From Alphaproteobacteria bacterium (GTDB lineage: Bacteria > Pseudomonadota > Alphaproteobacteria > Bin95): DNA of 38,173 nucleotides. Shown piece by piece: positions 10,779 to 34,626 of this stretch. Each line of letters starts with the position of its first letter. Within the stretch, counting starts at the first letter, position 1. Both the position numbers and the translations under genes were made by a program. A model generated the notes under the pieces. The model had not been told where the DNA came from, made no database searches, and worked only from the letters and a program-made list of their open reading frames with translations. The stretch is from NCBI GenBank assembly GCA_022821735.1, contig JAJECZ010000372.1:1-38173 (forward strand). The letters are read 5' to 3'.

Positions 10779-11237
10779 CTGCCCTTCTCGCCGAGCGACG
10801 ACGACGGCGTCAAGCGCCGTCGGGTCCCCTTTTCCTGCATGCCGGTCTCCCGGTCCGTCTCTTCGCGCTCCGGGACGGCGACGGGTTCGTGGCGACACGC
10901 GTCGAGCCCGTCCGCGAGCCGGGGCCGGCGAAGCTCAGGATCCCTCTCCACGGATCCCGAGTTCCCGCCCTGCACCGCACCGGTCTCCGATGGAGCGTTG
11001 TCGTTGGCGCTCTCGCTCCGCGTTGCATAGAGACTGCCCTCGAAGCCCGAGTTGCCCGGCAGGTCGAAGATCAACGGCGAGCCGAGACACCAGCGGTGCC
11101 CGGTGTCCGTAGGGCCCGAACCCGATATCGGGCGTGCCCGTGAACGCACGGACGAACACAGGGAGCCCGTAACCGAGCTTGGCCTCGGGACGGCTCGCCG
11201 CATGGAAGCCATCCCCGCCGTGTTCGTTGCCGGCCAC
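10739..11237 (-). pseudogene. Possible frameshifted gene of unknown function.
   Basis: Coding-like third-position bias switches frames near 11106-11112. It runs from track ORF 10935-11237 (VAGNEHGGDGFHAASRPEAKLGYGLPVFVRAFTGTPDIGFGP) into track ORF 10739-11395 (TDTGHRWCLGSPLIFDLPGNSGFEGSLYATRSE...). No family recognised. Confidence 0.3.
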
Positions 11238-15884: not shown

Positions 15885-15959
15885 GGGCCCGTAGCTCAAT
15901 GGCAGAGCGACGGTCTTTTAAGCCGCAGGTTCCGAGTTCGAGTCCCGGCGGGCCCTCCA
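15885..15959 (+). tRNA. tRNA-Lys (anticodon UUU) with encoded CCA.
   Basis: Hand-folded cloverleaf. The acceptor GGGCCCG/CGGGCCC is perfect and the D arm is GCTC-AATGGCA-GAGC. The anticodon loop is CTTTTAA and the T loop is TTCGAGT. There are two A-C mismatches, A27-C43 and A52-C62. Confidence 0.75.
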
Positions 15960-16899: not shown

Positions 16900-17234
16900 T
16901 CCCGTGGCAATCCCTTGATTTCCGGCCATTATTTCCGACTACGCATTCCAATTCATATCTTAGATTGACACTATATTTTTCCGACCCATGTATCAAATCG
17001 ATCTAATATAACCTCCGGCTGGAAAACCTATTTAGTATTAAGTCCTTGATTTACTGTATTTTTCCATTATGTTTTCCAGCAACGGACATTTGCAGCGGAT
17101 GTGTCGGTTCCAAACGGCCTATTCCGGTGCTCGGCACGGAGCGGAGCGAAGCACGTGCGGGCAAGATTGTTCCGCAGGGCCGGGCGTCCACACCCCGGCC
17201 CGATCTTTCGGCCAAACGCCAAGAGGAGCAAGAC
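16900..17234 (+). promoter_or_regulatory. AT-rich upstream region and leader of the nine-gene cluster.
   Basis: This is the most AT-rich stretch in the window. TTGACA lies at 16965-16970. CCTTGATTT occurs as a direct repeat at 16913-16921 and 17044-17052. A GC hairpin GGGCCGGG/CCCGGCCC lies at 17177-17184 and 17194-17201. The Shine-Dalgarno sequence AAGAGGAG is at 17221-17228. Confidence 0.4.
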
Positions 17235-17816
17235 ATGGCGACGGAAAGCAAGAAACGCCTCAGCAAGATCGCCCGCCAGAAGCTGCGCATGCGCGATACG
17301 CTGTGGCCCGAACTTGACGAGGCGCGATTGTGGTCGCGCGAGCGGTCGGACGGCTGGCTCAGCATGCCACGGCCGATGCCGCTGCTCATGAAGGTCATGG
17401 ACAGCCTGTCCAAGGGTAAGCCGGTTTCCTCGACCTATCTCGACCTCTGGTGCCGGACTTACGACGACTCCTTCGTTATCGCCAACAAGGACCGCGAGAT
17501 GGCGTACTTCTCAGGGTTCAGCGGCGAGCGGGCCGTACGCACTTGGACAATGCGCATGCGAACCCTCAATGACCTCGGCTTTATCGATATCAAGAGCGGT
17601 CCGAACGGGCCGATCAGCTACGTCCTGATTTTCAACCCCTACCTCGTCGTGCGCCAACTCTATGAAGCCGGCCAAATCAACGAAACTTTCTTCAACTCCC
17701 TCGCCCAGCGGATGATCGAGATCGGCGCTCACGACCTCAGCGACGCGCCTGACGAGGAAGAGGCGAAACCCCCATCCGTCCGACGCCGTCGCCGCGCCGG
17801 AAAGGCAACAGCATGA
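17235..17816 (+). CDS. Hypothetical protein, possible winged-helix DNA-binding protein (cluster gene A).
   Basis: The ATG at 17235 has a strong Shine-Dalgarno sequence, in frame within track ORF 17046-17816. The segment GERAVRTWTMRMRTLNDLGFIDIKSGPNGPISYVLIFNPY resembles a helix-turn-helix plus beta-wing. The tail is basic (RRRRRAGKA). Confidence 0.75.
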   Translation: MATESKKRLSKIARQKLRMRDTLWPELDEARLWSRERSDGWLSMPRPMPLLMKVMDSLSKGKPVSSTYLDLWCRTYDDSFVIANKDREMAYFSGFSGERAVRTWTMRMRTLNDLGFIDIKSGPNGPISYVLIFNPYLVVRQLYEAGQINETFFNSLAQRMIEIGAHDLSDAPDEEEAKPPSVRRRRRAGKATA

Positions 17817-18079
17817 GCACAGAAAACAAGGAATCGAGCGCCGAAACGGATGACGACAATCCGGCCGACGCGACCAATGGTGGAGAACCTGCCGCGCCGC
17901 AGACCAACTTTGACCGGCTGATCGCGCATCTGCCCGAGGACAGCCTCGCCGCGAAACTCGTGACCGCCTACGCGGCGTCAGGCGAGGCAGCACCCGCCGA
18001 TGCCATCGCAGAGGTCGCCGCAAACCGTCTCGATGAACTGAAGCAGAGCCATGACAACACTGAAGATCAACAAGATTGA
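17813..18079 (+). CDS. Very acidic small protein (cluster gene B).
   Basis: 88 aa with about 20 Asp/Glu versus 5 Lys/Arg. It has an ATGA overlap with gene A and a 29-nt overlap with gene C. Confidence 0.55.
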   Translation: MSTENKESSAETDDDNPADATNGGEPAAPQTNFDRLIAHLPEDSLAAKLVTAYAASGEAAPADAIAEVAANRLDELKQSHDNTEDQQD

Positions 18080-20576
18080 GGTGCAGGGCTTCCGGGCTTT
18101 CGGCCGGAAGGCACAGACGCTGTCCTTCGGCTCGTCACTGGCCGCCATCTGGGCACCGAACAGCCAGGGCAAGACCAGCCTTGCCGAGGCGTTCGAGTTC
18201 CTGCTGACCGGACAGATCGTCCGTCGCCAGCTCTTGGCCAGCACCCAGGACGAATTCGCTGACGCCCTGCGCAACGCCCATATGCCAGCCGCCATACCCA
18301 CATACGTCGAGGCGGAGATCACCGGCATTGACGGCCGGACGCACAACTTCAGGCGGACACTGATCTCGGACTACGCCAAGCGGAAAGACTGCCAGTCAGC
18401 CCTGCAGATCGACGGCGTGGAGGCTAATGAAAGCGATCTCGCCACCCTCGGTATCGTGCTCTCGCAACCGCCCCTCGCGGCGCCGGTCCTCGCTCAGCAC
18501 ACGCTCGGTTATCTCTTTTCCGCCCGGCCGCAGGACCGCGCCACGTATTTCAAGAGGATCCTTGAAGTCACGGATCTGGAAGAACTGCGAGGCGCGGTGG
18601 CGGGGCTCGACGCCGGGTTCAAGCCCGATGACGGCGACCGCCACTTAAGCCGGCTTGCTGCTGCCGCAGCCATCGAGAACGCGGAGCCACTTCTAGCACC
18701 CCTCGGTTCGGCTGTGCCGGCGCCTGCCGTTCTCGCCGCCGCGGTCGATGGGGCGATCACAGCCGTCCTGACCGCGGCCGAGCACCCATTGCCGGCAGTG
18801 CCCGCCGAGCGTCTGGTTGCGCTCGAAGGCTTGTTGCTGGAGCGACGGGCCAAGACATTCCCGGTTGACGGGTTCGCCAGGAGAGCGCTCGTCAACTGGA
18901 CCGAACCTGCCCAAGGAGAATGGGACACGCTCGATGTCTACCTAGCCGAGCGCGAAACGGTGGAGGAGGAGACGCGCCGTCTGATCGCGCTGTTCAGGGA
19001 GGCCTTGGCCATCCCCGCTGTCAATGCCGCGACGCAGCCCATCGACTGCCCACTGTGTGGTACGGAAGGCAGCCTGACGCCGGAGCGCATCGCCTTTATC
19101 CGCACCCGGGCGCATGAGACCGACGACTTCCAGACCGCTGAGGCGGCAGCGATTGACACCCTGCGCGCCCTGGCCGTATCCGCCCGTGGGTTCGATCGGG
19201 CGGCCGCTTCCGCCTGCCCTCGCTTCCTCACCATCAACTCAAGCGAGCGCCGGCAGGAAGGTTTCCGCGTGGAGCGCATCCGAACGTTGCTGGAACCGGA
19301 TGCCTCGGCCGTCATCGATGCTTGGCTGAAGGCGCTACGCAACCTCGCCCGCGCGCGGGCGACCATTGACGCCACCGCCAGCGCTCTCGCGGCGGAAGTC
19401 GAGGGCTACGCGGAGAAACCGGACACTCTGCGCGATCCGCAACCCTTGAGGACTGGCTTTGGGAACGTCGCAACTGCTTACTCCAATTTCGCGATCCAGC
19501 TGGAGCTCTACGCCGATGCGGAAACAGCCCTCCTGGAAAGGCTTACGGTCGTCATCGACGCCGCCAGCGACACCAGCGGCTGGCAGGAGCTCATCGATCT
19601 CGCCGGCGATCAGGGCGCGCTTCGCGCGAGCCTGATCGAGCGCCAGGCCCGGGCTGACATGCATGGGGAGCTGAATTCGGCGCTGCGCCAGATCGACAAA
19701 GGCAACGAGAAGGTTCTGGAGGACAAATTTGCGAATCTGAGCGGCAGCATCCAACACTGGTGGGACCTGCTCCGCCCCGACGAACCAACATTCTTCTCCG
19801 CAGTCAAACCCCGCAAAGGCGCACGGCGCACCGTCGACTTCAAGGCCGGCCTGTCCCTTGACGCCGACCGAACTGCTCCGAAGTTGCGCGACGTCATCGC
19901 CGTATTCAGCCAGTCGCAGCTTCACTGCCTGGGCCTCGCACTGTTCATCGCCCGCGCACTGCACGAGGGTGCCGGCTTCATGGTGCTGGACGATCCGATC
20001 TTGGCGAGCGATGAAGATTACCGGGCCTATTTCAAAACTGACGTCTTGGAGGAACTGACCGGCGCCGGAATCCAGACAATCGTCCTCACCCAGGACCAGA
20101 AGACATGGAAGGACCTGGAGCATCGATATCTGCACAAGAACATCGACATGTTCCAGTTGGCCCTTACCGACCGGGCCGACGGCACAGCGGTCACCAATAC
20201 AGGCGATGACCTCATGGCGATGCTTGCCCGTGCCGACGTGCTAGCACGGGGCGATCACATCGAGCTTCGCAAGCAGGCGGGTGAATTGCTGCGCAATGCC
20301 GCCGAGCGTTTCTGCAAGGAAATGCTGGTCAGGGACCGGTGGGCCAAGGGCGACAGCGCCGCCGCGCTTAGCGACCATGATGGCAAGAATCTCGGGCAAC
20401 TCGAACCCAAGGTGGAGCCGCTGCTCACGGCCGACCCGTCGCATCCCGGAAAGCTTCGCTCGGTCGGGAGCCAGCTCAACCCCGCCAAGCACGACGATGA
20501 CACGCCGGACCGGGGCACCATCAAGGTCGCCCTCGGCGACTTGAAGTTTCTCAAGAAGCAGTACCTGCCCACATAG
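18051..20576 (+). CDS. SMC/Rad50/DndD-like ABC ATPase with a long helical insert and a CxxC hook (cluster gene C).
   Basis: 841 aa. The N-terminus is KIEVQGFRAFG with Walker A APNSQGKTS at 18150-18179. A mid-protein CPLCG lies at 19047-19058. The signature-like motif is FSQSQLHCLGLALFIA, Walker B is FMVLDDPILASD, and a ~190-aa C-terminal extension follows. Confidence 0.88.
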   Translation: MTTLKINKIEVQGFRAFGRKAQTLSFGSSLAAIWAPNSQGKTSLAEAFEFLLTGQIVRRQLLASTQDEFADALRNAHMPAAIPTYVEAEITGIDGRTHNFRRTLISDYAKRKDCQSALQIDGVEANESDLATLGIVLSQPPLAAPVLAQHTLGYLFSARPQDRATYFKRILEVTDLEELRGAVAGLDAGFKPDDGDRHLSRLAAAAAIENAEPLLAPLGSAVPAPAVLAAAVDGAITAVLTAAEHPLPAVPAERLVALEGLLLERRAKTFPVDGFARRALVNWTEPAQGEWDTLDVYLAERETVEEETRRLIALFREALAIPAVNAATQPIDCPLCGTEGSLTPERIAFIRTRAHETDDFQTAEAAAIDTLRALAVSARGFDRAAASACPRFLTINSSERRQEGFRVERIRTLLEPDASAVIDAWLKALRNLARARATIDATASALAAEVEGYAEKPDTLRDPQPLRTGFGNVATAYSNFAIQLELYADAETALLERLTVVIDAASDTSGWQELIDLAGDQGALRASLIERQARADMHGELNSALRQIDKGNEKVLEDKFANLSGSIQHWWDLLRPDEPTFFSAVKPRKGARRTVDFKAGLSLDADRTAPKLRDVIAVFSQSQLHCLGLALFIARALHEGAGFMVLDDPILASDEDYRAYFKTDVLEELTGAGIQTIVLTQDQKTWKDLEHRYLHKNIDMFQLALTDRADGTAVTNTGDDLMAMLARADVLARGDHIELRKQAGELLRNAAERFCKEMLVRDRWAKGDSAAALSDHDGKNLGQLEPKVEPLLTADPSHPGKLRSVGSQLNPAKHDDDTPDRGTIKVALGDLKFLKKQYLPT

Positions 20577-20859
20577 ACGTTTCCCGTCGACTTCCGCCTT
20601 CCGGCAAATGTCCTCTGCGATCTGCCGGTGCTTCTTGTCCGCCGTCAACCCGTCCGGCACTCTCCCGAGGACGTAATCCTCACACCCCGACCCCGCCCAC
20701 CATCACCAGCATGCCCTGCAGCGGTTCCAGCCCAACCCAATCCGCAGTCCCCAGCGGGGTATCGCCGCATTCACCCTATCCGATGGCACGGCAGCTACAT
20801 CGTGCAAGACACTTCCCAGCCCTGTATATGGACTATGGTCCGAATTCGGAGATTGATTG

Positions 20860-21876
20860 ATGGTCGCTGTAAAGCTTGTCGACATCAACCGCATTGTCCT
20901 CGATACCGAGAATCCCCGCATTAAGCATTTCATGGAGATGTACGACGAAGTCACAGACGTCGCCATGAAGCTGGCCCTGGGTGCCGGCGGCGATTCGGAC
21001 GACGAGGCGACCGCCCAAGACAAATATCGCCAGCTCAAACGTGCGATCAAGGAAACCGGCGGCGTCGTTCAGCCCATCATACTGAAAGACGACAACGACG
21101 GAACGTATCTTTGTATCGAAGGCAACACCCGAGTCGCCATCTACCGCGAGCTTGGCGAAGAATCTGCGCCAGGTGACTGGAACCAGATTCTGGCAATTGT
21201 CCATGACGAACTCACAGAACAGCAGGCCCACGAGATTCGCCTTCAAGTCCATCTTGTTGGCCCCCGCTCCTGGACACCCTACGCCAAGGGAAAATACCTT
21301 TACGAGCTCTGGCACCAGGACAAGATGCCCATGACAGAAATCCTCAGGGTCTGCGGCGGAACCGAAAAAGCCGTACAGACAGAAATAGCTGCGTTCGAAG
21401 ACATGGAGTCCTATTACCGACCAGTCGCCGAAGCAGACGGCTCTGAAATGTTCGATTACTCCCGGTTCAGTGCCTTTCGGGAACTGCAGCGAGTCAAGAA
21501 CAGCATCTACGAAGCGGGGAAATCTGAACAGGACTTCGCGGAGTGGGTTCACAAGGGGTTGCTTCGTCCCCAAGAAAGAGTTCGCGACCTACCACAGATT
21601 CTGAAGGATACGGAAGCAACACGGATTCTCCTCAAATCGGGCGCAAAAGAGGCCGTGCGATACCTCATATTGAAGGAGAGCGAGAGCGAATCGGTTACGT
21701 CGTTGCGCGATGCATCGATCGTCGAACTGGCTGCGGCACTTCGCCGGCGAGTCGAACGCCTGTCCTTCGACGAGTCCGTGCAAATCGCTACCTCGCCAGT
21801 ATCCCCCGAAATGCTAGAGCTCGATGCCTTGCGGCGAAGCATCGACACCCTGGCGGAAACGGCAGAGGAGGAATAG
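20860..21876 (+). CDS. ParB/Srx-fold N-terminal domain protein with HTH (cluster gene D, ParB-like 1).
   Basis: ENPRI lies at 20908-20922 and IEGNTRVAIY at 21115-21144 (EGNTR at 21118-21132). An HTH-like segment MTEILRVCGGTEKAVQTEIAAF lies downstream. The ATG at 20860 follows GGAG. Confidence 0.82.
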   Translation: MVAVKLVDINRIVLDTENPRIKHFMEMYDEVTDVAMKLALGAGGDSDDEATAQDKYRQLKRAIKETGGVVQPIILKDDNDGTYLCIEGNTRVAIYRELGEESAPGDWNQILAIVHDELTEQQAHEIRLQVHLVGPRSWTPYAKGKYLYELWHQDKMPMTEILRVCGGTEKAVQTEIAAFEDMESYYRPVAEADGSEMFDYSRFSAFRELQRVKNSIYEAGKSEQDFAEWVHKGLLRPQERVRDLPQILKDTEATRILLKSGAKEAVRYLILKESESESVTSLRDASIVELAAALRRRVERLSFDESVQIATSPVSPEMLELDALRRSIDTLAETAEEE

Positions 21877-21882
21877 CCACCT

Positions 21883-22308
21883 GTGGCGGAAGGCCCGGTT
21901 CACAGAGCGCTCGTGCATCGGTTGGAGATGGCCGTTTCCGCCGCTCTAGGCCCGACGGCGCAGGGCATCGTCGACCGCGATGGCGGATATCGAGATCCCA
22001 CGTGGATGATCGGCGGCGCGTTTCCGGACGTCCGCGCTTTCGGGCGGGGGTTCGAGATCATCGGCGAAGCCAAACCTCCAAACGACCTGGAAACCCCCAG
22101 GTCTCAGCGACAGATCGCGAAATTCGTGAGATATGTTGAGCAGCTAACCAACGCCCACCTCGTCTTGTCGGTTCAATGGCACAGCACGCCGACTGCATGG
22201 AACCTGTTGCGACGCTCTGCGAGTGACTGGCGCGTCGTGCGAAGCAAGGTCCATGTCCTCAACGGCCTCTCCGACTTGTCCCTCCGGACACACGCCGGTC
22301 ACGCATGA
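21883..22308 (+). CDS. Small putative PD-(D/E)xK nuclease-fold protein (cluster gene E).
   Basis: 141 aa with a GTG start 6 nt after gene D. The motif is FPDV (D at 22027-22029) then EIIGEAK (K at 22072-22074). It has an ATGA overlap with the SNF2 gene. Confidence 0.6.
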   Translation: MAEGPVHRALVHRLEMAVSAALGPTAQGIVDRDGGYRDPTWMIGGAFPDVRAFGRGFEIIGEAKPPNDLETPRSQRQIAKFVRYVEQLTNAHLVLSVQWHSTPTAWNLLRRSASDWRVVRSKVHVLNGLSDLSLRTHAGHA

Positions 22309-23762
22309 AGACTCGGTTCACTCCCCGTCTCGAGGCCAAGCACCGCCCGCTGTCCCACCAGATGGAAGCCTTGCACGTAGTGCGTGACCTAGAATTCGCT
22401 GCACTTTTTCACGAGCAGGGCCTCGGCAAGACCAAAATCGGTCTGGACCTCATTCTTTACTGGCTGGCGACGTCGGTCGCCGATTCCGTGGTCGTCGTGA
22501 CAAAAAAGCTCCTGGTACCCAACTGGGTCCGCGAAACAGACGCCCACACTCACCTGCGGCCCGTCGTGCTCGGCCAAAACAAGCGAGCGAACTACTGGGC
22601 CTTCAATACCCCCGCCCGGCTCTATCTAGCTCACTATGAAGTTATGCACACCGAGCGCACGCGGCTCTCCATGTTCGCCGACTCGCGGCGCCTGGCGGTA
22701 ATTCTCGACGAGGCGCAGCGCATTAAGAACCCCAACACCGCCCCTGCGAAGGCACTGCATTCCTTGGCTCACAAGCTTGTGCGCCGTGTCATCATGACGG
22801 GCACACCGGTCGCGAACCGGCCCTACGATATCTGGTCACAGGTCTACTTCCTCGACCAGGGACGAGCGCTCGGCACTTCGTTTTCTGCGTTCCAGAACAA
22901 TGCCGACCTAACACGCTCGGTCGCCGAACAACCTGAGTCGGCGCGTGCCTTCGAAAACAAGATCGCCGATGTCCCTGCCAAAATTCGGTCCTTCTCTGTG
23001 CGCGAGACCAAAGACAGCGCCGAACTCACGCTGCCGGAGAAAACCGTCAGGGACACTCCCGCCGGGATGGAGGAGGCGCAGAGGGCGCTTTACCAGCGCT
23101 ACAAGAGCCAGTTGCGGGCCGAGGTGCAACGGGACGGCGTCAAGACGCTCGACGATGCCGACCGTGTCCTCAAACGCCTCCTTCGCCTTGTCCAGGTCGC
23201 GTCCAACCCAGGACTGGTCGACGAGACCTATGGACATGAACCCGGCAAGCTAACGGTGTTAGACCGAATCCTTAGCAAGCACGAACCGGACCAGGCGAAG
23301 AAGATTGTCTGGACGGCATTCACGGACAATGTCGAATTGATCGCCCGCCGGTATCCGGAGCGCCGGCCTGCCCGCATCCACGGCCGCCGCACGATAGCCG
23401 ACCGCAATTCCGACATAGTTCGCTTCCTTGAGGAAGACAACTGCACCCTGCTCGTCGCCACACCGGGCTCGGCCAAGGAAGGTCTGACCCTCACCGTCTC
23501 GGACCATGCCATTTTCTTCGACCGATCCTTCAGTCTGGATGACTATCTGCAAGCTCAGGACCGCATTCACCGGATCTCCCAAACCCGTGAATGCGTGATC
23601 GAGAACCTGATCGCAACCGACACTGTGGACGAGTGGGTCAGCGCCCTACTGTCGGCGAAGGAGCTGGCAGCTGCCCTTGCACAGGGTGACCTCAGCCTTC
23701 CCGAGTACCGCGACCACGCCACTTACGACTTCGCGCGGACACTCGACGCGGTGCTCGCATGA
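22305..23762 (+). CDS. SNF2-family helicase/translocase, core only (cluster gene F).
   Basis: 485 aa. Motif I GLGKT lies at 22419-22433 and motif II DEAQ at 22707-22718. Motif III is MTGTPVANR and motif VI is QAQDRIHRISQ. Confidence 0.92.
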   Translation: MKTRFTPRLEAKHRPLSHQMEALHVVRDLEFAALFHEQGLGKTKIGLDLILYWLATSVADSVVVVTKKLLVPNWVRETDAHTHLRPVVLGQNKRANYWAFNTPARLYLAHYEVMHTERTRLSMFADSRRLAVILDEAQRIKNPNTAPAKALHSLAHKLVRRVIMTGTPVANRPYDIWSQVYFLDQGRALGTSFSAFQNNADLTRSVAEQPESARAFENKIADVPAKIRSFSVRETKDSAELTLPEKTVRDTPAGMEEAQRALYQRYKSQLRAEVQRDGVKTLDDADRVLKRLLRLVQVASNPGLVDETYGHEPGKLTVLDRILSKHEPDQAKKIVWTAFTDNVELIARRYPERRPARIHGRRTIADRNSDIVRFLEEDNCTLLVATPGSAKEGLTLTVSDHAIFFDRSFSLDDYLQAQDRIHRISQTRECVIENLIATDTVDEWVSALLSAKELAAALAQGDLSLPEYRDHATYDFARTLDAVLA

Positions 23763-23798
23763 ACGTCTGCTGCAACCACATTTTCAGGGGCTCATTGG

Positions 23799-24854
23799 AT
23801 GACTGAATACTATCGTATCGGTAAGTCGCAGATCCCGTACAGGCTCGAGGCCATTCCCATCGAGAGTGTAGCTTTCTACGCTGAGAATCCTCGAATCTAC
23901 TCCCAATTTTCTGCGACGGAGGAGCGCACCCAAGAGGCAATCCAAAAAAAGCTCGAAGCGATGGAACATGTGAAGACACTTCGTGCGCAAATTCATCGCG
24001 ATCAACAGGTCAATGAACCACTGTGGTGCATGCCGGTAGACCAAGACTCTCCATTGAGCGCCAGTTACGACTTCATAACGCTCGAAGGAAACAGTCGCCT
24101 CGCAGCGTTGAGAATGGAAACCAGAACACCCCCTCCTGTGACGACCGTGCCGTGCAACATTCTTGATCTCTCCTCCCTGACGGCCGTTCAACGCGAATCA
24201 TTCATCTTCAGTCTTCTCGGCCGCATTCACATCACGGGCAAGACCAACTGGCAAACCTACGAGAATGCTGCATACATCTACCGGAGATACAGATATCAGG
24301 GAGTATCCGCAGAAGATCTGGCCAAGGAATTGGTCGGCCTGACGCCCGCTAAAGTAAGCAATACCGTCAAGGCCTACGAACTGATGTCACAAAATGAGGA
24401 CACGAAGCCCGACCATTGGAGCTACTATGACGTCCTCGTCTCCGGTCGAAAGTGGCCCAAGCTTCGCGACACCTATCCTTCTCTTGATGCCATTCTGCTT
24501 CCCATGATTCGCAATGAGGAATTTCAGAGGGCGCAAGACATGCGCGACAAGATTCCCGTGATCATGCACAACAAACAGGCTCGCAGGCGGTTTCTGGAGG
24601 GCGACAGCGAGGAGCGTTTCGTTCATGCGCTGGAGATCGCTGAATTTGGCGGTGGAAGTAACACGGTACTTCGAAGGCTCGAGGCCTTTCAGCGTTTCCT
24701 GACGCAGGATGAGAACGAAGACGCCATCAAACAGCTCCTGGACGCTCAAGGAACGAAGGGCAAGGCGAAGTTCGCTCTCGACAAGATCTATGACGTGATG
24801 GCGCGTCTATCGCCTAAGGCTCAGAGACTCGCCGAACGCCGAAAGGGGCGCTGA
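23799..24854 (+). CDS. ParB/Srx-fold N-terminal domain protein with HTH (cluster gene G, ParB-like 2).
   Basis: ENPRI lies at 23883-23897 and LEGNSRLAAL at 24081-24110 (EGNSR at 24084-24098). The HTH-like segment is VSAEDLAKELVGLTPAKVSNTVKAY. It is a paralog of gene D. Confidence 0.82.
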   Translation: MTEYYRIGKSQIPYRLEAIPIESVAFYAENPRIYSQFSATEERTQEAIQKKLEAMEHVKTLRAQIHRDQQVNEPLWCMPVDQDSPLSASYDFITLEGNSRLAALRMETRTPPPVTTVPCNILDLSSLTAVQRESFIFSLLGRIHITGKTNWQTYENAAYIYRRYRYQGVSAEDLAKELVGLTPAKVSNTVKAYELMSQNEDTKPDHWSYYDVLVSGRKWPKLRDTYPSLDAILLPMIRNEEFQRAQDMRDKIPVIMHNKQARRRFLEGDSEERFVHALEIAEFGGGSNTVLRRLEAFQRFLTQDENEDAIKQLLDAQGTKGKAKFALDKIYDVMARLSPKAQRLAERRKGR

Positions 24855-24857
24855 GCG

Positions 24858-26543
24858 ATGAACATGCCCAAGAACGTCCTCTTGATCGAGCCCGGGTATC
24901 CGAATAAGTACCCGCCGCTTGGGCTTATGAAGATCGCCGCATATCACGGCGTTCGCGGACGCGGCGACAATGTCGTCTTCATCAAGGGTCCCGAACCCGC
25001 AGTCCTGGCGCAGCACTGGGACCGTGTATACGTGACCACGCTGTTCAGCTTCGAATGGAAGACGACAGCCAGAGCGATCGACTTTGCGATTGAGGCGGCC
25101 GCATACCAGTCGGAAAGGGTCTTCGTCGGCGGGATTGCTGCATCGCTGATGCACGACTCCTTCGTTTCCGAGCCCCGATGGGCGGGGGTACGATTCATCA
25201 AGGGACTTCTCGATGTATCGCCTGCGAGCGCGCTTAAGCTCTCCGCGGCCGATGGAGACTTCGGCGCCGACGATCTCCATGGCACACCAATCGAGGAGCT
25301 CGTACCCGATTACAGCATTCTCGACCAGATTGCCGACAGCTACACATATCCCGTCAACGATGCGTATTTCGGATACGCATCGCGAGGTTGCGTGCGCAAG
25401 TGCGCATTCTGCGGCGTACCCAAGCTCGAAGGCCGGCAGCGTGAGATGCCACCGCTCGCCCAGCTTGTCCGAGGTGTCTCGGACCATTATGGCGAGAAAA
25501 AGGATCTTGTCCTAATGGACAACAACATCACCGCGTCTTCCCGCTTCAAGGAGATCATGGCCGAAATCCGTGATTTGGGATTCACGCCAAACGCAACTTT
25601 GCTTCGGCCTAATGGGAGATCTGTCCGGCGGCGCGTCGATTTCAACCAGGGCGTCGATGCGCGCATTCTGGCCAAGTCCCCGATGTTTCTCAGGGAAATG
25701 TCCACGATTTGCATCAGCCCATTGCGGATCGCTTTCGATCATCTGGGCGTGCGCAAGGTGTATGAGGCCTCGGTCCGCATGGCAGCGGACAATGATATTC
25801 GATCCTTGTCGAACTACATGCTGTACAATTTCATGGACGATCCTGCGGATTTGTATCAGCGCATGCGGCTCAACATTGATCTCAATGAAGAGCTGGGGCT
25901 ACGGATATGGTCCTTTCCCATGCGATATCAGCCGGTCACCCTGAAAGAACGCACCCATGTGGGAAAGCGTTGGAACCGGTATTATCTGCGATCATTCCAG
26001 ATCATGCTCCAAGCGACCAGAGGAGTGGTTAGCGGCGCTCCAGACTTCTTCTCCAGGGCCTATGGTAATTCGCCCGAGGATTTCCAGCGGCTTCTGCGTC
26101 TGCCCCACGCCTTCATTTTCCATCGGGACTATTACGAGAATCCTGCCCGCGACGGCCGCGCCGTCATGGACGAGTATCTGGCGGCCCGGTCGAAGCTCTC
26201 TGTGAGCCAGGAACATGAGCTGGTAAGCCTGCTGGCCGGACCTCCCGAACAAAAGACGGTATCTCTTGTCCGATTCCGCAAGCTCGTATCGGACAGCACC
26301 GTGGACCGCCCGATCCGGGAACTTCTGCGATACCACTCTCTGGGAACCCAACACCCCCCCGGCGCCAACGCGAGAGTGGTCGAGCCTCTTTTCGACCGGC
26401 TCAATCCCGACCCGGTCCTGCCCGATGACGAGAGGGTGGAGGATGCCGGGCTCTTCGGACCAGGCGATCTGGACGGCGGACGAGTCGCGCCGCTCGGTGC
26501 GCGCTCCGGGCATCGCGCCTGGCGAGCCGCGGAGACCGGTTAG
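24858..26543 (+). CDS. Radical SAM enzyme with an N-terminal B12-binding-like (Rossmann) domain (cluster gene H).
   Basis: 561 aa. The CX3CX2C motif GCVRKCAFCG lies at 25389-25412. The N-terminus LLIEPGYPNKYPPLGLMKIAAYH...VFVGGIAAS is typical of radical SAM proteins with a B12-binding domain. The long C-terminal region is unassigned. Confidence 0.88.
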   Translation: MNMPKNVLLIEPGYPNKYPPLGLMKIAAYHGVRGRGDNVVFIKGPEPAVLAQHWDRVYVTTLFSFEWKTTARAIDFAIEAAAYQSERVFVGGIAASLMHDSFVSEPRWAGVRFIKGLLDVSPASALKLSAADGDFGADDLHGTPIEELVPDYSILDQIADSYTYPVNDAYFGYASRGCVRKCAFCGVPKLEGRQREMPPLAQLVRGVSDHYGEKKDLVLMDNNITASSRFKEIMAEIRDLGFTPNATLLRPNGRSVRRRVDFNQGVDARILAKSPMFLREMSTICISPLRIAFDHLGVRKVYEASVRMAADNDIRSLSNYMLYNFMDDPADLYQRMRLNIDLNEELGLRIWSFPMRYQPVTLKERTHVGKRWNRYYLRSFQIMLQATRGVVSGAPDFFSRAYGNSPEDFQRLLRLPHAFIFHRDYYENPARDGRAVMDEYLAARSKLSVSQEHELVSLLAGPPEQKTVSLVRFRKLVSDSTVDRPIRELLRYHSLGTQHPPGANARVVEPLFDRLNPDPVLPDDERVEDAGLFGPGDLDGGRVAPLGARSGHRAWRAAETG

Positions 26544-26565
26544 TCCATCTCGTTGAGGAAAGCCC

Positions 26566-28062
26566 ATGCCACTCGAAGAGCCACTGTCGACATTGGTCGG
26601 AGGGAACGTTCTGTCCTTGGTCACGGCGGGAATGTACGACGACCCTTTGGCGATCTACCGTGAATACATTCAGAACGCCGCTGATGCTGTCTCTCGTTCC
26701 AACCGATCGGGCCGCGTAGACATCACTATCGATCCCGTCGCGCGGCGCATTCGAATCCGCGACAACGGTCCGGGCCTTTCTCGAGCGGAAGCAACACGCT
26801 CCCTCGTAGTTGTTGCCGACAGTGACAAGACGCACGGTGTCGACAGGGGCTTCCGGGGCATCGGTCGATTGTCAGGCTTGGCCTGCGCCGAATTCGTGGT
26901 CTTCAGAACGCGATGCCGCTCTCGCAAGCGTATCACCCGCGTCGAGTGGGATGGCGTTGTAATGCGGACCAAGCTGCTCGACCGCGCAACCTTGGAGGAT
27001 ACGATCCGTAGTTGCGTTTCCGTCTCCTCTGAAGATGCAGGCGATTATCCCGAACATTTCTTCGAGGTTGAAATCCTTGGTGTCAGCCGACACGTCTCCG
27101 GCAGACTGCTGAACAGCGATGCCGTCAAGGACTATGTCTCCGAGGTGTGTCCGGTTCCGATATCGGACGATTTCCCCTTGGCTGACGAGGTGACCGGTTA
27201 CCTTCACGGCCATATCCTGGGTCCCCCGCTCGACATTCACGTCAACGGTGCTGAGGAAGCTCTTCGGCGCCTGCGCCATCCGGCAATCGCATTCTCGGAC
27301 GTCCATCATGAGGCCTTTGCCGAATTGGAGACATTCCAAGTCCCGGACGCCGAAGGTCGGGGGCTATCCGCTATTGGTTGGCTCGCTCATTCAGCCTACC
27401 TCGGCGCGATCCCGAAGAACCTTCGCCTCCGGGGAATCCGGGCTAGGTGCGGCAATATTCAGGTCGGCAGCGACACCGTGTTCGACCACTTGTTCCGAGA
27501 GGAACGCTTCAATCGCTGGTGCGTGGGCGAAGTCCACGTAATCGACCCGCGCATTCTCCCCAACGGGCACCGAACCTATTTCGAGAGCGGCCCGCGCATC
27601 CGAAATCTCGAAAATCACCTTTCCGCAATCGCGCACCAGGTTTCCAGTCGTTGTCGGCGCCATTCGTCCATTCGACATCGACAGCGACAAATGGCGTCGA
27701 AACTGGAGCGAGCAGAAAACGCCTTGGAAGCAGCAGTCAAGCTTATCGGTTCCGAACCCTCCGCAAGGGATTATGCTTGGCGGGTACTGGGCGCGGAGGC
27801 AGAAGCCCTCCGACGTCTACGCGCAGACACGCCGGTCTCGCAAATTGATTGCCCAGAAACACTAAACAGCCTTTCAACGCTGGAAGCGACCCTCTCGACG
27901 CGGACCAAGCAACTGAAACCGTCCTTCACACGACACATCGGCATTAGAAATCCCGGCGATGATCGTTGGAGAGTAGCCTTCGAACGTTTGGCCTCTGCTT
28001 GCGGCTCGCCTACGCTGGCTCTAACCGCTATTCAACACGCGTTTCTAGACACCGGCTGCTAG
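26566..28062 (+). CDS. GHKL (Bergerat-fold, MORC/Hsp90/MutL-like) ATPase (cluster gene I).
   Basis: 498 aa. Motif I is EYIQNAADA (Asn at 26674-26676), motif II is DNGPG at 26761-26775, and motif III is RGFRGIGRLSG. Confidence 0.86.
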   Translation: MPLEEPLSTLVGGNVLSLVTAGMYDDPLAIYREYIQNAADAVSRSNRSGRVDITIDPVARRIRIRDNGPGLSRAEATRSLVVVADSDKTHGVDRGFRGIGRLSGLACAEFVVFRTRCRSRKRITRVEWDGVVMRTKLLDRATLEDTIRSCVSVSSEDAGDYPEHFFEVEILGVSRHVSGRLLNSDAVKDYVSEVCPVPISDDFPLADEVTGYLHGHILGPPLDIHVNGAEEALRRLRHPAIAFSDVHHEAFAELETFQVPDAEGRGLSAIGWLAHSAYLGAIPKNLRLRGIRARCGNIQVGSDTVFDHLFREERFNRWCVGEVHVIDPRILPNGHRTYFESGPRIRNLENHLSAIAHQVSSRCRRHSSIRHRQRQMASKLERAENALEAAVKLIGSEPSARDYAWRVLGAEAEALRRLRADTPVSQIDCPETLNSLSTLEATLSTRTKQLKPSFTRHIGIRNPGDDRWRVAFERLASACGSPTLALTAIQHAFLDTGC

Positions 28063-28159: not shown

Positions 28160-29455
28160 TTATGCAGCTTCTACCATTTCATCAAATTGCTGTCTGCCAA
28201 TTCCACCCTTATTTACCAGTACGGTTTGAATCACCCTCTCTGATGCATGAAAAAAGCGTGCCGCCGCCGATATATCCTCTTCAGAAGGCACCTCTGTATT
28301 GATGTAAGATAACAGGTCCTCGTAAGGACAAAGAAGACTTTGCGCAAATGCTCGCTGAAATTTCTGCCGACCTGTCTTCGTCCTCGTTATAGGTCCTAAT
28401 GGATCGTTACCCGACCATATTGCATCACCCAAAGTGCGACACAACTCAAATCGACGCCCTTGGGCCCAGCGGGAACTCAACGCTACAACATTTCTATTCC
28501 CGTCTCCTTCCCGTAGGCGAAGACCATAATGAAGTCCGCCCGGTTCAGCATCCCTGCTGCGAAAGTGATCTTTAGAGACATTTAGCAATTCTGCCAAACG
28601 CGTATTTCTCAATGGTCCGTTGTCGGCACCCAATCCCCTACGTACTGCTGTAGCTGCCTCCTCGGCAACTTCCCAAATTGGTTTAGTGTATCGCTGTTTA
28701 ATGTCCCCCGCTGCGGCAATTGCGTCATGCAGCTCGCAAACTACTTTTGACTTCTTTGCGACCTTTATCTCTTCTGCCAGCGTGTCAGCAGATGTTTCTC
28801 CCTGACTGGCCACAATTGCCTCCTCAACTCCCTCATTCCCATAGCTTTCCAAATAACCCAGCAGTAGTTGGACTAGTTCACTCGGCGCGCGGTCGATATC
28901 GTATCCCAACTTAGCCTCTATTCGGCGCCATGTAGCCGCATTATCATCTACGCGCTCTTCTTTCAACGCCAAGAATTGCGCGTTCAACGCTACCTTGTCG
29001 TCCGAAGCCGCATCCACAGCCTTACTCAAAAACCGATCAACTGATGCTTCAAACTGATCTGCGCCTACAAAAACAAGAGCATCCTTAGTAAATCTCAGGG
29101 CAAAATTCATGCTGAGCGGATCACTACGGCAGGCGAGCCCGACTCGAGGGTCTTCACCCCAAATGCGAAGTCTTGGCCAAATGTAACCTCCGCCAATCGC
29201 CGAAAGCTCGTGGGCCAGACGCCAAGTCGGATCGACGTTGTCGGATACTATTGGTTCCCAACGTAGGCGCCACCAGTTATCCGTGATCCAAAACGCCAAT
29301 TGAACGGGCGGCGCTTGAAGATAGTCGTCAGCTTGATTTCCTCCATCTCGAACAAGTTCAGTGAAACAGACTTCACCTGATCGCAACGCTATATGCTGCG
29401 GCACTTCCCACGAGGACTCCGGTTCAGTCCGGATATCGAACTGGAAATCGGTCAT
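28160..29455 (-). CDS. Protein with a C-terminal ImmA/IrrE (COG2856)-like domain lacking the HEXXH motif.
   Basis: 431 aa. The C-terminal half fits the family template (AVRRGLGADNGPLRNTRLAELL...GRRFELCRTLGDAIW...QRAFAQSLLCPYEDLL), but CRTLGD sits where HELGH is expected. G+C is very low (26/60 at 28201-28260). Confidence 0.72.
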   Translation of the reverse strand: MTDFQFDIRTEPESSWEVPQHIALRSGEVCFTELVRDGGNQADDYLQAPPVQLAFWITDNWWRLRWEPIVSDNVDPTWRLAHELSAIGGGYIWPRLRIWGEDPRVGLACRSDPLSMNFALRFTKDALVFVGADQFEASVDRFLSKAVDAASDDKVALNAQFLALKEERVDDNAATWRRIEAKLGYDIDRAPSELVQLLLGYLESYGNEGVEEAIVASQGETSADTLAEEIKVAKKSKVVCELHDAIAAAGDIKQRYTKPIWEVAEEAATAVRRGLGADNGPLRNTRLAELLNVSKDHFRSRDAEPGGLHYGLRLREGDGNRNVVALSSRWAQGRRFELCRTLGDAIWSGNDPLGPITRTKTGRQKFQRAFAQSLLCPYEDLLSYINTEVPSEEDISAAARFFHASERVIQTVLVNKGGIGRQQFDEMVEAA

Positions 29456-29958
29456 CGCCGGAAACCGTAAAGCGTTTTACATTGTTGAACTGCTTGATGT
29501 GCTAGTTGGTTTCCGTGTACTTGGACCCAATCTCTGAATCGCCTGTATACCAGCACCGCTATCGGCTCGGTGCGTCGCACGGGGTAGCCATGATACTCTG
29601 TCTGTACAATGTTTGTAATCCTCCCCTCGTAAATCCAGCCGTTGTTTGCAACGGCCCAGATGATGCCATTTTCGCCGACTAGGCCAGCCTGTAAACCCCG
29701 GTGAATCATTGGGCGAATTAGAGGGATGTGAGCGGGTTGAAAATTGGCATCCCGGTCGCAGAGGGTGGCATCTCCTCTAGTACCCAAGAAAGGTTCGAGG
29801 CCATAGAGGTGGGGATTTTGCTTATGCTTAGAATATGGTTGGTAGATTATGTTTTGTTGCAATTGCGCGATGTAGGCCGGAGGAGGATTGGCCAACAGTC
29901 GGCGCTTCTCGTTGTTTGAGTGCCGAGCAGGTAGGTTGGATCTCGTTGCCGGTCGCAT
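29452..29958 (-). CDS. Hypothetical protein, family unassigned.
   Basis: 168 aa with an ATGA overlap onto the downstream gene. A conserved-looking core reads GIIWAVANNGWIYEGRITNIVQTEYHGYPV. G+C is low. Confidence 0.65.
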   Translation of the reverse strand: MRPATRSNLPARHSNNEKRRLLANPPPAYIAQLQQNIIYQPYSKHKQNPHLYGLEPFLGTRGDATLCDRDANFQPAHIPLIRPMIHRGLQAGLVGENGIIWAVANNGWIYEGRITNIVQTEYHGYPVRRTEPIAVLVYRRFRDWVQVHGNQLAHQAVQQCKTLYGFRR

Positions 29959-30320: not shown

Positions 30321-30596
30321 TCAGCCGCCGACGGCATTCCTGAGCGACCTGCCCGGCTTGAAGACGGGCACGGTCGAAGCCGCCACAGGCACATTTTCTC
30401 CCGTGCGGGGGTTGCGGGCGATGCGCGCCGGTCGCGCCCTGGTTCCGAAGCTGCCGAATCCGAGGCTTCGCACGTCCTCGCCATTTGCCAGGGCTTCGCC
30501 GATCACCTCGAACACGCCCTCCACCGCATCCTTCGCAGCCGCTTTCGTCATTCCCGTCCGGTCCGCGAGGCGCTCACCCAGTTCCGACTTGTTCAT
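30321..30596 (-). CDS. hup: HU/IHF-family nucleoid-associated DNA-binding protein.
   Basis: 91 aa from the ATG at 30596 within track ORF 30321-31025: MNKSELGERLADRTGMTKAAAKDAVEGVFEVIGEALANGEDVRSLGFGSFGTRARPARIARNPRTGENVPVAASTVPVFKPGRSLRNAV. Confidence 0.92.
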   Translation of the reverse strand: MNKSELGERLADRTGMTKAAAKDAVEGVFEVIGEALANGEDVRSLGFGSFGTRARPARIARNPRTGENVPVAASTVPVFKPGRSLRNAVGG

Positions 30597-30763
30597 CCCT
30601 GCACTCCCATGCTTGTCATCACCGGCCCGCTGTCCGCCTGAGTAGTATGTTGGGCCATTCTGCGCGATATGCCTCGCCTTGGGGTCGTCGCGCTTCCGCG
30701 CCATGAGCGGCACGTCCGGGAACGGCGTGTTACGGTCGCGGCGGCGTGTTGTCGGGGGGTGCG

Positions 30764-31189
30764 ATGCTGGACGACAGGGAACTCCTAGAGAAGCTTGCCA
30801 AGGTGGAAGCCCTGTTCCGGCGGGCCGCCAGTCCGGGGGAGCAGGCTGCTGCAGGAGCTGCGATGGACCGGCTGCGCGACCGGCTCGGCGCCTCCGACCG
30901 GGATGGCGGTCCGGAAACCGAACTCCAGTTCTCGCTGCCGGACGCCTGGTCGGTCCGGCTGTTCGTCGCCGTCTGCCGCAAACACGGCCTGCGCCCGTTC
31001 CGCTATGCGCGGCAACGGCGGACAACGGTGATGGTGCGCGCCCGCGAGCGACATTTCGATCGTGTGGTGTGGGCCGAGTTCAGCCACCTTCAAACCGAGC
31101 TCGAACTCTACTTCGAGGACGTTACCGACCATCTGATTACCCGCGCCATGGGCTCGGACGGCGACGACAGCAACATCGGGCAGCGGTAG
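30764..31189 (+). CDS. Hypothetical protein; the N-terminal helical segment is reminiscent of DUF2786-type proteins.
   Basis: The ATG at 30764 lies within track ORF 30746-31189 (LLEKLAKVEALFRRAASPGEQAAAGAAMDRLRDRL...). It is divergent from the HU gene. Confidence 0.6.
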   Translation: MLDDRELLEKLAKVEALFRRAASPGEQAAAGAAMDRLRDRLGASDRDGGPETELQFSLPDAWSVRLFVAVCRKHGLRPFRYARQRRTTVMVRARERHFDRVVWAEFSHLQTELELYFEDVTDHLITRAMGSDGDDSNIGQR

Positions 31190-32131: not shown

Positions 32132-33058
32132 TTAACAACGGCCCGACGGCGCCTCCCTTGCGTGCCGGTGCCTCAATACCGGCCCAAGCTTGGCATAGTG
32201 TCCGGCGTTGCTGTACTCGTCGTACCAGGTTCCGAGGTGAAGCTGGAGATCCGTCACGAAGTAATGCAAGAGCCGTGCGGAACTGACGATTGGCTCAAGG
32301 CCTTCTTCCTGCAGCGTTGTCCAACTCATCGTCTTCGCTGCGTCCTCGGAGGCCAGGTTGACCTCCGCGGCGACGCCGAGTTCCACACCATTTCCGCCCA
32401 TTCTTGCCGGAATACAAAGCGTCGCTGGCTCGTCGTCGTCCAAAATCAGTACCGATGCATTATTCGGTGCGATGCCGTTCGCCCGTAAATCGGCTTCCAA
32501 CTGCTTCACCTTGCAATCACCTTGTCCCAAGGCAATCAGGAAGTTGTAGCAACGATTGTTCCACTCCCTGCCGGTGATCGGTCTCGTCATCTCGGCCAGG
32601 GTCGCCTCATCTGACATCGTGCCGAACCGAAACCTGTTCGCGATCAACCGCCCTTTCTGCAGAGTCTCCATATCTTCTACGATCCGGCGGTAGCTTGTCA
32701 GAACATTGCCATGATCCCACCACGAAGCCTTGACCTCGCCGACGGCCGCAACCCATTCGACCCTCACCAGCTCGGTTTCCCCGTCATCTGCCTTGTGCAT
32801 GGTCGCGGCAGGAACATCCTTGACGACGATCAAATCCATCTGTCCTGACTTCATCCCATCCGCTCGAACCACGTGTCCGTGTGTCACCCGGTACAGCCCT
32901 CCGACGAGACTCCCGACAAGCTTCCTGACCGCCTGCTCCGGCCCATCCCCTCTCGCGCGGATGTTATTCCGTCCTCCCGTGGCCCTCGACCTGTTGCGAC
33001 TTACGAACAGCTCCTCCGCAATCGTCGCATAGAGTTCGTCCGGACTGTATGTATCCAT
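32132..33058 (-). CDS. PD-(D/E)xK nuclease-fold protein (resembles the DUF6602-type).
   Basis: 308 aa. The motif is SGQMDLIVV...AVGEVKAS (D...E-x-K). G+C is lower than in its neighbours. Confidence 0.7.
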   Translation of the reverse strand: MDTYSPDELYATIAEELFVSRNRSRATGGRNNIRARGDGPEQAVRKLVGSLVGGLYRVTHGHVVRADGMKSGQMDLIVVKDVPAATMHKADDGETELVRVEWVAAVGEVKASWWDHGNVLTSYRRIVEDMETLQKGRLIANRFRFGTMSDEATLAEMTRPITGREWNNRCYNFLIALGQGDCKVKQLEADLRANGIAPNNASVLILDDDEPATLCIPARMGGNGVELGVAAEVNLASEDAAKTMSWTTLQEEGLEPIVSSARLLHYFVTDLQLHLGTWYDEYSNAGHYAKLGPVLRHRHAREAPSGRC

Positions 33059-34536: not shown

Positions 34537-34626
34537 TGGCGGTGGGGGTGGGATTCGAACCCACGGTACGCTTGCGCGTACAACGGTTTTCGAGACCGCC
34601 CCGTTCAACCGCTCCGGCACCCCACC
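34537..34626 (-). tRNA. tRNA-Ser (anticodon CGA), long variable arm, encoded CCA.
   Basis: The reverse complement reads GGTGGGGTGCCGGAGCGGTTGAACGGGGCGGTCTCGAAAACCGTTGTACGCGCAAGCGTACCGTGGGTTCGAATCCCACCCCCACCGCCA. The acceptor GGTGGGG/CCCCACC is perfect, the anticodon loop is CTCGAAA and the T loop is TTCGAAT. Confidence 0.92.

Follow-up and report, generated by a model that had tools for sequence, protein, structure and literature searches.

Positions 1 to 38,173 of contig JAJECZ010000372.1 (assembly GCA_022821735.1, Alphaproteobacteria bacterium), referred to below as the window, carry an operon of six genes, C to H, in which gene G encodes a large radical S-adenosylmethionine (SAM) enzyme. 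The six genes are located on the plus strand and are tightly packed: D and E overlap by 4 nt, and the gaps between F and G and between G and H measure 3 and 22 nt. The open reading frame (ORF) initially annotated for G is confirmed and translates to 561 amino acids (aa). Across related loci, the conserved core of this gene group is the pair of the radical SAM gene and the gene of a GHKL ATPase (H in the window), which is combined with exchangeable nuclease and motor partners. This core had not been seen in the initial annotation. The features of the window are listed in Table 1.

Table 1. Operon C to H and surrounding features in the window (positions refer to the window; residue numbers refer to the respective protein)
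Feature	Position	Strand	Description
Genes C to H	20857-28062	+	proposed two-module system
Gene C	20857-21876	+	339 aa, ParB/Srx-like; opens the nuclease/motor module
EGNTR motif of C (residues 88-92)	21118-21132	+	conserved, 51 sequences
Gene D	21883-22308	+	141 aa, small predicted PD-(D/E)xK nuclease
P48-D49 of D	22024-22029	+	at least 95% conserved
E62-A63-K64 of D	22066-22074	+	at least 95% conserved
Gene E	22305-23762	+	485 aa, minimal SNF2-family ATPase/translocase
Gene F	23799-24854	+	351 aa, second ParB-like protein, distant paralogue of C
EGNSR motif of F (residues 96-100)	24084-24098	+	conserved
Gene G	24858-26543	+	561 aa, radical SAM enzyme, uncharacterised class-B-like subfamily
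N-terminal domain of G (residues ~5-115)	24870-25202	+	Rossmann-type, B12-binding-like; from secondary structure, pLDDT > 90 and Foldseek
T60-T61-L62 of G	25035-25043	+	part of the B12 signature
G91-G92 of G	25128-25133	+	part of the B12 signature
Radical SAM barrel core of G (residues ~165-430)	25350-26147	+	from model and alignments
[4Fe-4S] cluster motif C178-X3-C182-X2-C185 of G	25389-25412	+	invariant in both alignments
VEDAGLF motif of G (residues 527-533)	26436-26456	+	conserved C-terminal motif, close-clade alignment
Gene H	26566-28062	+	498 aa, GHKL (Bergerat-fold) ATPase
AbiEii-type nucleotidyltransferase toxin gene	7197-8342	-	E 8e-15; upstream of the island
tRNA-Lys	15885-15959		low-GC stretch starts just after it
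Genes A and B	17046-20576	+	256 and 841 aa; just upstream of the operon
Gene B	18051-20576	+	SMC/AAA_23-type ATPase
Genes I and J	28160-29958	-	431 and 168 aa; convergent with the operon
HU-like gene	30321-31025	-	near the recovery of the GC content
DUF6602 protein gene	32132-33058	-	downstream of the island
tRNA-Ser	34537-34626	-	

The position of G between the ParB-like protein F and the GHKL ATPase H, as proposed initially, is confirmed by matches in Pfam, PADLOC and PHROG. H matches Pfam HATPase_c_3 (PF13589, E 1e-06) with intact ATP-binding motifs (E33/N37/D40, D66-G68-G70 and G95-G100), and its family profile matches the N-domain of HtpG/Hsp90 (3e-12). The C-terminal region of H is conserved and has no function assigned. 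In both C and F, a ParB/Srx-type EGN[TS]R motif is conserved, and F also has a conserved ENPR motif. C matches Pfam ParB_N (E 7e-04), PADLOC PDC-M38A (6e-08) and ParB-like PHROG families, and is 42% identical to its orthologue on a plasmid of R. leguminosarum. F has weak PADLOC matches (PD-Lambda-5_A/PDC-M38A), matches phrog_3694 (1e-10) and is 32% identical to its orthologue on pR132505, a 'ParB N-terminal domain-containing protein'. Gene D, which is always found between C and E, has no family match in Pfam, PADLOC or NCBIfam. The pattern PD-x12-EAK, typical of PD-(D/E)xK nucleases, is conserved in the alignment of its 53 orthologues. E is assigned by Pfam SNF2-rel_dom (5e-27) and Helicase_C (1e-11) and resembles ZorD/DpdE in PADLOC.

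To characterize the gene context of G, the window was compared with 80 genome loci (L001-L080), the best from one-genome-per-species data, whose G homologues are 63-74% identical. A GHKL gene follows or adjoins the radical SAM gene in 80 of these 81 loci across many phyla. The pair is also kept in relatives of 42-46% identity, there together with the SNF2 module or a DndB-family protein, and relatives from IMG/VR (27-41% identity) keep the arrangement NurA-HerA-GHKL-radical SAM. The partners are exchanged around this pair. The module of ParB-like protein, D, SNF2 protein and ParB-like protein is present in 53 loci, upstream or downstream of the radical SAM gene and on either strand. In about 14 loci it is replaced by a NurA-like protein (362 aa), HerA (565 aa; identified by a profile match to PDB 7f6d, E 4e-53) and a second GHKL protein, and in others by a DndB-HEPN fusion of ~770 aa. 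Some loci carry DndB-family (PF14072) proteins together with the core. The pNL1 orthologue of the fusion appears to be Saro_3948, a ParB-HEPN fusion listed in PMC3710099. Within the same loci, the radical SAM protein is 63-74% identical, versus 23-75% and mostly 30-50% for the partners. No DNA methyltransferase family is found in the window operon and none is conserved across the 81 loci, in agreement with the initial idea that G takes the place of the methyltransferase of an RM-like system.

The linkage holds in the reciprocal direction. Searching with the SNF2 protein E on independent metagenome contigs (relatives ~50-57% identical) yielded loci in which the order C-D-E-F is invariant. Of those spanning 6.4 kb or more, 51 of 59 contain the radical SAM gene, as do all 18 with at least 6 kb on both sides. 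The DNA-targeting context of G noticed at the outset is therefore conserved and reciprocal. The two modules occur collinear, divergent or convergent, which fits two separate transcription units. Directly upstream of the radical SAM gene, 34 of the 51 SNF2-seeded loci encode a DGQHR protein of ~340 aa, as do the plasmids and, in general, most non-sponge loci; this gene is absent from the window and its clade. The DGQHR protein matches PADLOC DpdB at 7e-11 and the DndB-HEPN fusion matches it at 2e-18.

Additional genes adjoin the core in some relatives. On plasmids and metagenome loci, a PIN-like protein (~620-650 aa) and a paralogous GHKL ATPase (~530 aa), both not found in the window, frequently lie beside the triad of DGQHR, radical SAM and GHKL genes (L081 4081-7634, L082 12209-15725, L083 5212-8656 and many of L171-L250). 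In nine related loci (L005 17472-20391, L007 6559-9389, L019, L021, L022, L032, L041, L048 and L077), a GHKL ATPase of ~620 aa with PADLOC type II restriction endonuclease/MzaB profile matches adjoins the system together with a ~322-aa protein that has no family match; this pair may be a further partner module or an independent system. In L096 (1014-11142), the nuclease/motor module is replaced by two proteins encoded upstream of a 698-aa radical SAM homologue and a GHKL gene: one of 1,151 aa, followed by one of 629 aa that carries an MrfA zinc-binding domain (formerly DUF1998).

The CX3CX2C motif of G lies where it was initially placed, and its three cysteines are invariant in 36 of 36 close homologues and in 40 of 40 diverse homologues (30-72% identity). 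No other cysteine is invariant across the 40 diverse homologues, and for this reason an auxiliary cluster is not predicted. The Pfam family Radical_SAM (PF04055) scores 21 bits on G, under its gathering cut-off of 29.5, and matches 30 of the 40 diverse relatives at E < 1e-03 (best 1.9e-08). No Pfam, NCBIfam or PADLOC family claims G; these searches, like a sequence search against the PDB, return sub-threshold matches around the cluster motif only. The family is divergent, yet belongs to the radical SAM superfamily by motif and fold. G reaches no cut-off of the curated class B families (TIGR04013/04014/04072, BchE, HpnJ, PhpK and others): the best E-values of their hidden Markov models (HMMs) range from 3.5e-06 to 1e-03, with 15-20 bits versus cut-offs of 250-775.

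Assignment to a named family failed, as G stays below the curated cut-offs of all named families of class B, methylthiotransferase and viperin type. A viperin identity was rejected because the defining features are missing: the protein has 561 aa with an extra N-terminal domain and no PADLOC pVip match, and the PADLOC viperin search gave nothing at an E-value of 0.01 or better, in line with the earlier statement that G is not viperin-like. A methylthiotransferase identity was rejected because G lacks the N-terminal three-cysteine auxiliary cluster and no TRAM domain was found, Pfam-type searches having detected none in G or the 40 relatives. P-methylation of the DNA backbone was set aside, since the weak PhpK-family matches that prompted it cover the cluster motif alone.

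For structural comparison, a first model of G based on the 36 close homologues was poor (predicted local distance difference test, pLDDT, 58.8) and was replaced by an AlphaFold model based on the diverse alignment (pLDDT 87.5; predicted template modelling score 0.86). This model was searched against the PDB with Foldseek, and 17 of the 19 matches with E < 1e-03 correspond to radical SAM enzymes, models included. The best ones (E 2.6e-11 to 4e-06) comprise the cobalamin-dependent enzymes MgmA (E 2.6e-11), TsrM (4.3e-11), CysS (1.8e-07) and TokK (1e-06), the cobalamin-independent AprD4 (6fd2; 2.3e-09) and the methylthiotransferases MiaB/MtaB (~3e-09 to 4e-08) and RimO (2.9e-06). In a library of viral structures, only generic B12-type radical SAM phage proteins match. 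The model thus has the partial TIM-barrel of the radical SAM fold. As to the subgroup of G, which the initial annotation sought, a class-B-like fold is indicated by Foldseek, whereas membership in a curated class B family is not supported.

The initial suggestion of a B12-binding-like Rossmann domain within the N-terminal ~110 aa is borne out by this model; Foldseek also matches the domain to isolated B12-binding domains and to OxsB, and Pfam B12-binding (PF02310) matches 5 of the 40 diverse relatives (best 1.6e-08). The classical B12 signature reads DxHxxG-x(41-42)-SxL-x(26-28)-GG. Its first part, DxHxxG, had not been clearly seen in G at the outset and is absent from all 40 relatives. G keeps the two other parts at canonical spacing, T60-T61-L62 being followed by 28 residues and G91-G92, and [ST]xL-x(24-28)-GG is found at the expected place in 28 of the 40 relatives. 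Class B enzymes usually lack DxHxxG and bind cobalamin His-off, and judged from its sequence the N-terminal domain of G looks like such a His-off B12-type domain.

The ~370 aa downstream of the cluster motif, initially described as featureless, are in fact structured in part. The barrel carries the family-specific conserved motifs DNN (221-223), DFNQG (261-265), RIAFDH (290-295) and SFPMRY (352-357). It is followed by a helical region at residues ~430-500 and a low-confidence region at ~504-561 (pLDDT < 50 at 504-506 and 523-561). Within the latter, E525, E528, D529, A530, G531, L532 and F533 are invariant in 36 sequences, and the VEDAGLF motif is a candidate partner-docking peptide. In the close clade, this acidic-hydrophobic stretch (D/E-E-x-V-E-D-A-G-L-F) sits in an otherwise poorly conserved tail; G extends 28 residues past the motif, and most homologues stop ~7 residues after it. 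Five relatives from low-GC organisms (P0134, P0146, P0166, P0170 and P0188; 800-824 aa, 41-46% identity) carry a helical, repeat-like C-terminal extension of ~370 aa. This extension has no family match and could be a target-recognition or partner domain. P0134 retains the complete six-gene context (L086).

The family of G is large and widespread. Among 8,000 candidates scored in a word-indexed search, at least 7,850 clusters at 90% identity belong to it. The top 120 clusters are all at least 69% identical, and hardly any is named beyond 'hypothetical protein'. An exhaustive search with G of 50%-identity representatives gave 1,660 clusters at E <= 1e-03, of which 256 reach E <= 1e-30. The close clade (7,850+ clusters at 90%) collapses to essentially one 50%-identity cluster, which suggests massive recent horizontal spread in one habitat. 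Many close copies are found in metagenome-assembled genomes titled as sponge-associated lineages (Poribacteria, Poriferihabitaceae, Spongiihabitans). The hosts of the 80 genome loci are Chloroflexota, Gemmatimonadota, Binatia, Latescibacterota, Nitrospirales, Poribacteria, Acidobacteriota, Alpha- and Gammaproteobacteria, Spirochaetia and others, a distribution over many phyla that indicates horizontal spread. Copies of 56-59% identity are located on plasmids of cultured bacteria, among them N. aromaticivorans pNL1, R. leguminosarum pR132505 and plasmids of Bradyrhizobium, Mesorhizobium, Agrobacterium and Roseomonas, where they are annotated merely as 'radical SAM protein' or 'hypothetical protein'. 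Some plasmids carrying relatives are conjugative. Within the searchable library, no literature describing this radical SAM family or the gene combination was found.

Relatives of G are also encoded by viruses. G matches phrog_9298 (E 1e-37), and 426 IMG/VR stretches encode relatives, several full-length viral homologues having neither a GHKL nor a ParB-like neighbour. One such contig (L102) encodes a homologue of 30% identity between a uracil-DNA glycosylase/3'-5' exonuclease protein and DNA polymerase A, with sliding clamp, DNA methyltransferase, clamp loader and single-stranded DNA-binding protein genes nearby. In another (L104), a homologue of 39% identity is flanked by a YqaJ exonuclease on one side and a recombination directionality factor on the other, with endonuclease VII and primase genes close by. 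Marinitoga camini virus 1 encodes a 360-aa homologue beside HerA and NurA. By analogy, the solitary phage copies resemble orphan phage modification enzymes. On L102, a 66.8-kb low-GC phage contig, the polymerase is split around the radical SAM homologue (6396-10890), the polymerase domain of polymerase A being on one side. On L099 (IMG/VR, 7905-10615), a 493-aa homologue is directly followed by a different radical SAM protein of 411 aa (Radical_SAM 7e-13, Radical_SAM_N2).

The operon is embedded in a stretch that looks like a genomic island. Between ~16 and 30 kb of the window, the GC content is about 55-60% (range 50-62%) versus ~70% in the genome; it drops just after tRNA-Lys and recovers near 30 kb. 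No repeat of the tRNA-Lys 3' end was found in an attachment-site search, no integrase is present among the ORFs scanned, and a promoter/terminator scan of 16-30.5 kb gave counts at or below the shuffled expectation. Genes A and B were rejected as members of the system, as they are found in 0 of 80 related loci. A has no family matches, and the N-terminus of B matches PADLOC LmuB, mad3, PtuA and GajA; presumably they make up an independent defence pair of the same island, Lamassu-like or of another type. Gene I has a weak C-terminal match to the IrrE/M78 peptidase, and I and J could be a regulatory or toxin-antitoxin-like pair; homologues of both (44-50% identity) also adjoin the system in L080 (9476-9940 region). 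Outside the island, the AbiEii-type and DUF6602 genes add to the defence or toxin-antitoxin-type genes in the vicinity of the system.

Based on these data, C to H may constitute a restriction-modification (RM)-like, horizontally mobile, two-module defence-type system in which the radical SAM enzyme marks DNA. This proposal draws on analogy and is a tentative one, given somewhat less than an even chance. It is favoured because of the Dnd/Dpd-like arrangement, in which a modifier that evolves slowly is joined to exchangeable restriction modules, the DpdB/DndB-type neighbour, the orphan phage copies and the lack of a conserved methyltransferase. The first module would be the conserved core of the class-B-like enzyme G and the GHKL ATPase H, and the second a nuclease/motor set of the ParB-like protein C, the PD-(D/E)xK nuclease D, the SNF2 translocase E and the ParB-like protein F. 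By reductive cleavage of SAM at its [4Fe-4S] cluster, G would mark the DNA of its host covalently in a radical reaction. In the simplest case the mark would be a C-methyl or similar group, for which cobalamin, held His-off by the N-terminal domain, might act as a relay. H and the nucleoside triphosphatases (NTPases) of ParB/DGQHR type would clamp G on DNA or load it there, in the way DpdB does for DpdA, whose modification of DNA depends on the ATPase DpdB (PMC10164549). The second module would translocate on DNA and cut it where the mark is missing. The data show the fold class of G, the linkage of the genes, their modularity and mobility, and the lack of annotation; we infer the defence role, DNA as the substrate, the methylation chemistry, the use of cobalamin and this division of labour. 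The DpdB-like neighbour and the solitary phage copies lend circumstantial support to a DNA-directed role of G. It is conceivable, if doubtful, that G is the first radical SAM writer of a DNA modification, placing a carbon-linked mark at an unactivated position as an RM-like self-label, and that phages captured solitary copies for their own genomes. That the system represents a new kind of DNA modification is rather unlikely as well.

Several observations weigh against this proposal. No domain for DNA binding or target recognition could be recognised in G. Its best structural matches act on protein (MgmA, RimO), tRNA (MiaB, MtaB) or small molecules (TsrM, TokK, CysS, AprD4), and none acts on DNA. 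Enzymes sharing the fold include methylases, a dehydratase and ring-contracting enzymes, so the chemistry of G cannot be predicted from the modelled fold alone. AprD4 is a diol dehydratase of aminoglycoside biosynthesis. Its presence among the matches means that the fold by itself is no predictor of methylation, and it illustrates that B12-like domains can occur without cobalamin; DxHxxG is absent from G. The DGQHR gene, the closest analogy to Dpd, is the one missing from the window clade. The putative anti-phage role of C to H is read from context: the system lies in an island, includes nucleases, exchanges its modules and has spread horizontally. For a modification enzyme, it is unusual to have a GHKL ATPase as obligate partner, and a sensor/effector pair would explain this as well. 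HEPN and PIN proteins typically serve as RNase effectors of abortive infection; alternatively, their genes could belong to independent systems that share the defence island.

An unlikely alternative is a sensor/effector system without self-marking. Here the GHKL and ParB-like NTPases would sense invading DNA, the radical SAM enzyme would be the effector or signal generator, either making an antiviral or signalling nucleotide in a viperin-like logic or damaging nucleic acid by hydrogen abstraction, and the nucleases would act downstream. Besides the obligate GHKL pairing and the HEPN, PIN and NurA-HerA partners, which look like abortive-infection effectors, it draws on the known radical SAM defence enzymes (viperins, Ophion, HXS), which act on nucleotides or mature effectors and not on host DNA. 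The fold of G, however, is class-B-like or methylthiotransferase-like rather than viperin-like, solitary homologues within phage replication modules are hard to explain for an antiviral effector, and the DpdB-like neighbour points towards DNA modification. Quite improbable is a role as protein maturase, in which the radical SAM enzyme would post-translationally modify a partner, most likely the adjacent GHKL ATPase or ParB-like protein. The top Foldseek match is a protein glutamine C-methylase, MgmA, and RimO is matched too; comparable cases are MgmA/Mmp10, which methylate methyl-coenzyme M reductase, and RimO, which modifies ribosomal protein S12. The nearly invariant adjacency of radical SAM and GHKL genes fits this role, and a radical SAM-matured effector, HXS, is a precedent in defence (PMC13128918). 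The homologues of 30-39% identity in phage contigs and the one of Marinitoga camini virus 1 occur without a GHKL or ParB-like gene, however, and a conserved precursor peptide is absent.

A non-immune function is very unlikely. In that case, the cluster would serve maintenance, replication or repair of a mobile element, with the ParB-like proteins and ATPases organising the DNA of the plasmid or genomic island and the radical SAM enzyme acting in DNA repair or nucleotide supply. Its carriage on large conjugative plasmids, the fact that ParB-like, NurA-HerA and SNF2 proteins also serve segregation and repair, and the location of phage homologues in replication modules would agree with it. Against it stand the PD-(D/E)xK nuclease, HEPN and PIN partners, the shuffling of modules and spread of the system across phyla, the location of the window copy in a low-GC island with an AbiEii toxin gene upstream, and the absence of a linked ParA or replication initiator.

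Compared with known enzymes, G shares with class B members (MgmA/QCMT, TsrM, TokK, CysS, OxsB; Foldseek E 2.6e-11 to 1e-06) a layout of two domains, with a B12-type Rossmann domain at the N-terminus preceding a CX3CX2C barrel, and resembles them in the putative His-off style, with DxHxxG missing and the remnant [ST]xL-x(26-28)-GG kept. It differs from them in sequence (12-18% identity, every curated HMM far below its cut-off), in its own barrel motifs and helical C-terminal domain, and in a context that is DNA-targeting and not biosynthetic. AprD4 also has a B12-like domain and is itself cobalamin-independent. MiaB, RimO and MtaB, which act on nucleic acid (tRNA) or protein, have a comparable fold (E ~3e-09) and give the best weak sequence matches around the cluster motif; they are distinguished from G by the N-terminal three-cysteine auxiliary cluster and by TRAM.

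At the level of the system, the Dpd system (DpdA/B/C and DpdD-K) is similar in that a DpdB-matching DGQHR/ParB-like protein adjoins the putative modifier in relatives of the window. The SNF2 protein E matches DpdE profiles, a generic match, and both systems are multi-gene, combine modification and restriction modules and are found on mobile DNA. No match to DpdA or DpdC was found by PADLOC among ten window proteins. Unlike Dpd, the system of G has no DpdA transglycosylase, DpdC or preQ0 pathway, and relies on a radical SAM enzyme, together with its GHKL partner, as the putative modifier. It resembles the Dnd/Ssp phosphorothioate systems in the DndB-family proteins that accompany the core and in the combination of a conserved modifier with variable restriction partners; it differs from them in having no equivalents of DndA, DndC, DndD or DndE. 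MORC/paraMORC RM systems on mobile DNA combine a GHKL ATPase, a superfamily II helicase and a restriction-endonuclease-fold nuclease and carry DNA cytosine or adenine methylases, radical SAM proteins being unmentioned there (Iyer, Abhiman and Aravind 2008, PMC2292703). The same trio is present in the window with H, E and D; here, in contrast, the partner that never varies is a radical SAM enzyme, and methyltransferases are not conserved.

A radical SAM enzyme is also essential to the anti-phage systems of viperins, Ophion and HXS. Viperins are small (~300 aa) nucleotide dehydratases. Ophion consists of a radical SAM protein (OpnA), a PHP phosphatase and a phosphoribosyltransferase (PRTase) (10.1101/2025.09.30.679545), and in HXS a radical SAM maturase acts on a repeat peptide in phage defence (PMC13128918). 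According to Pfam, PHP and PRTase domains are absent from the window operon. All three belong to another fold subclass than G, and none has GHKL, ParB-like or SNF2 partners. To our knowledge, all established RM-like DNA self-marks are made by polar chemistry, i.e. SAM-dependent N- or C5-methylation, phosphorothioation and 7-deazaguanine base exchange. If a radical SAM enzyme indeed forms the invariant core of a defence-type system, this would point to a new class of DNA or nucleotide chemistry, and a very large unnamed protein family would gain a function. Even with a substrate other than DNA, an obligate radical SAM-GHKL pair with interchangeable nuclease/motor modules is an undescribed architecture, and plasmid copies in culturable Novosphingobium and Rhizobium make the question directly testable. 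In comparison with the systems above, C to H has the traits of a multi-gene defence-type system with a new enzymatic core, and may be an undescribed defence system.

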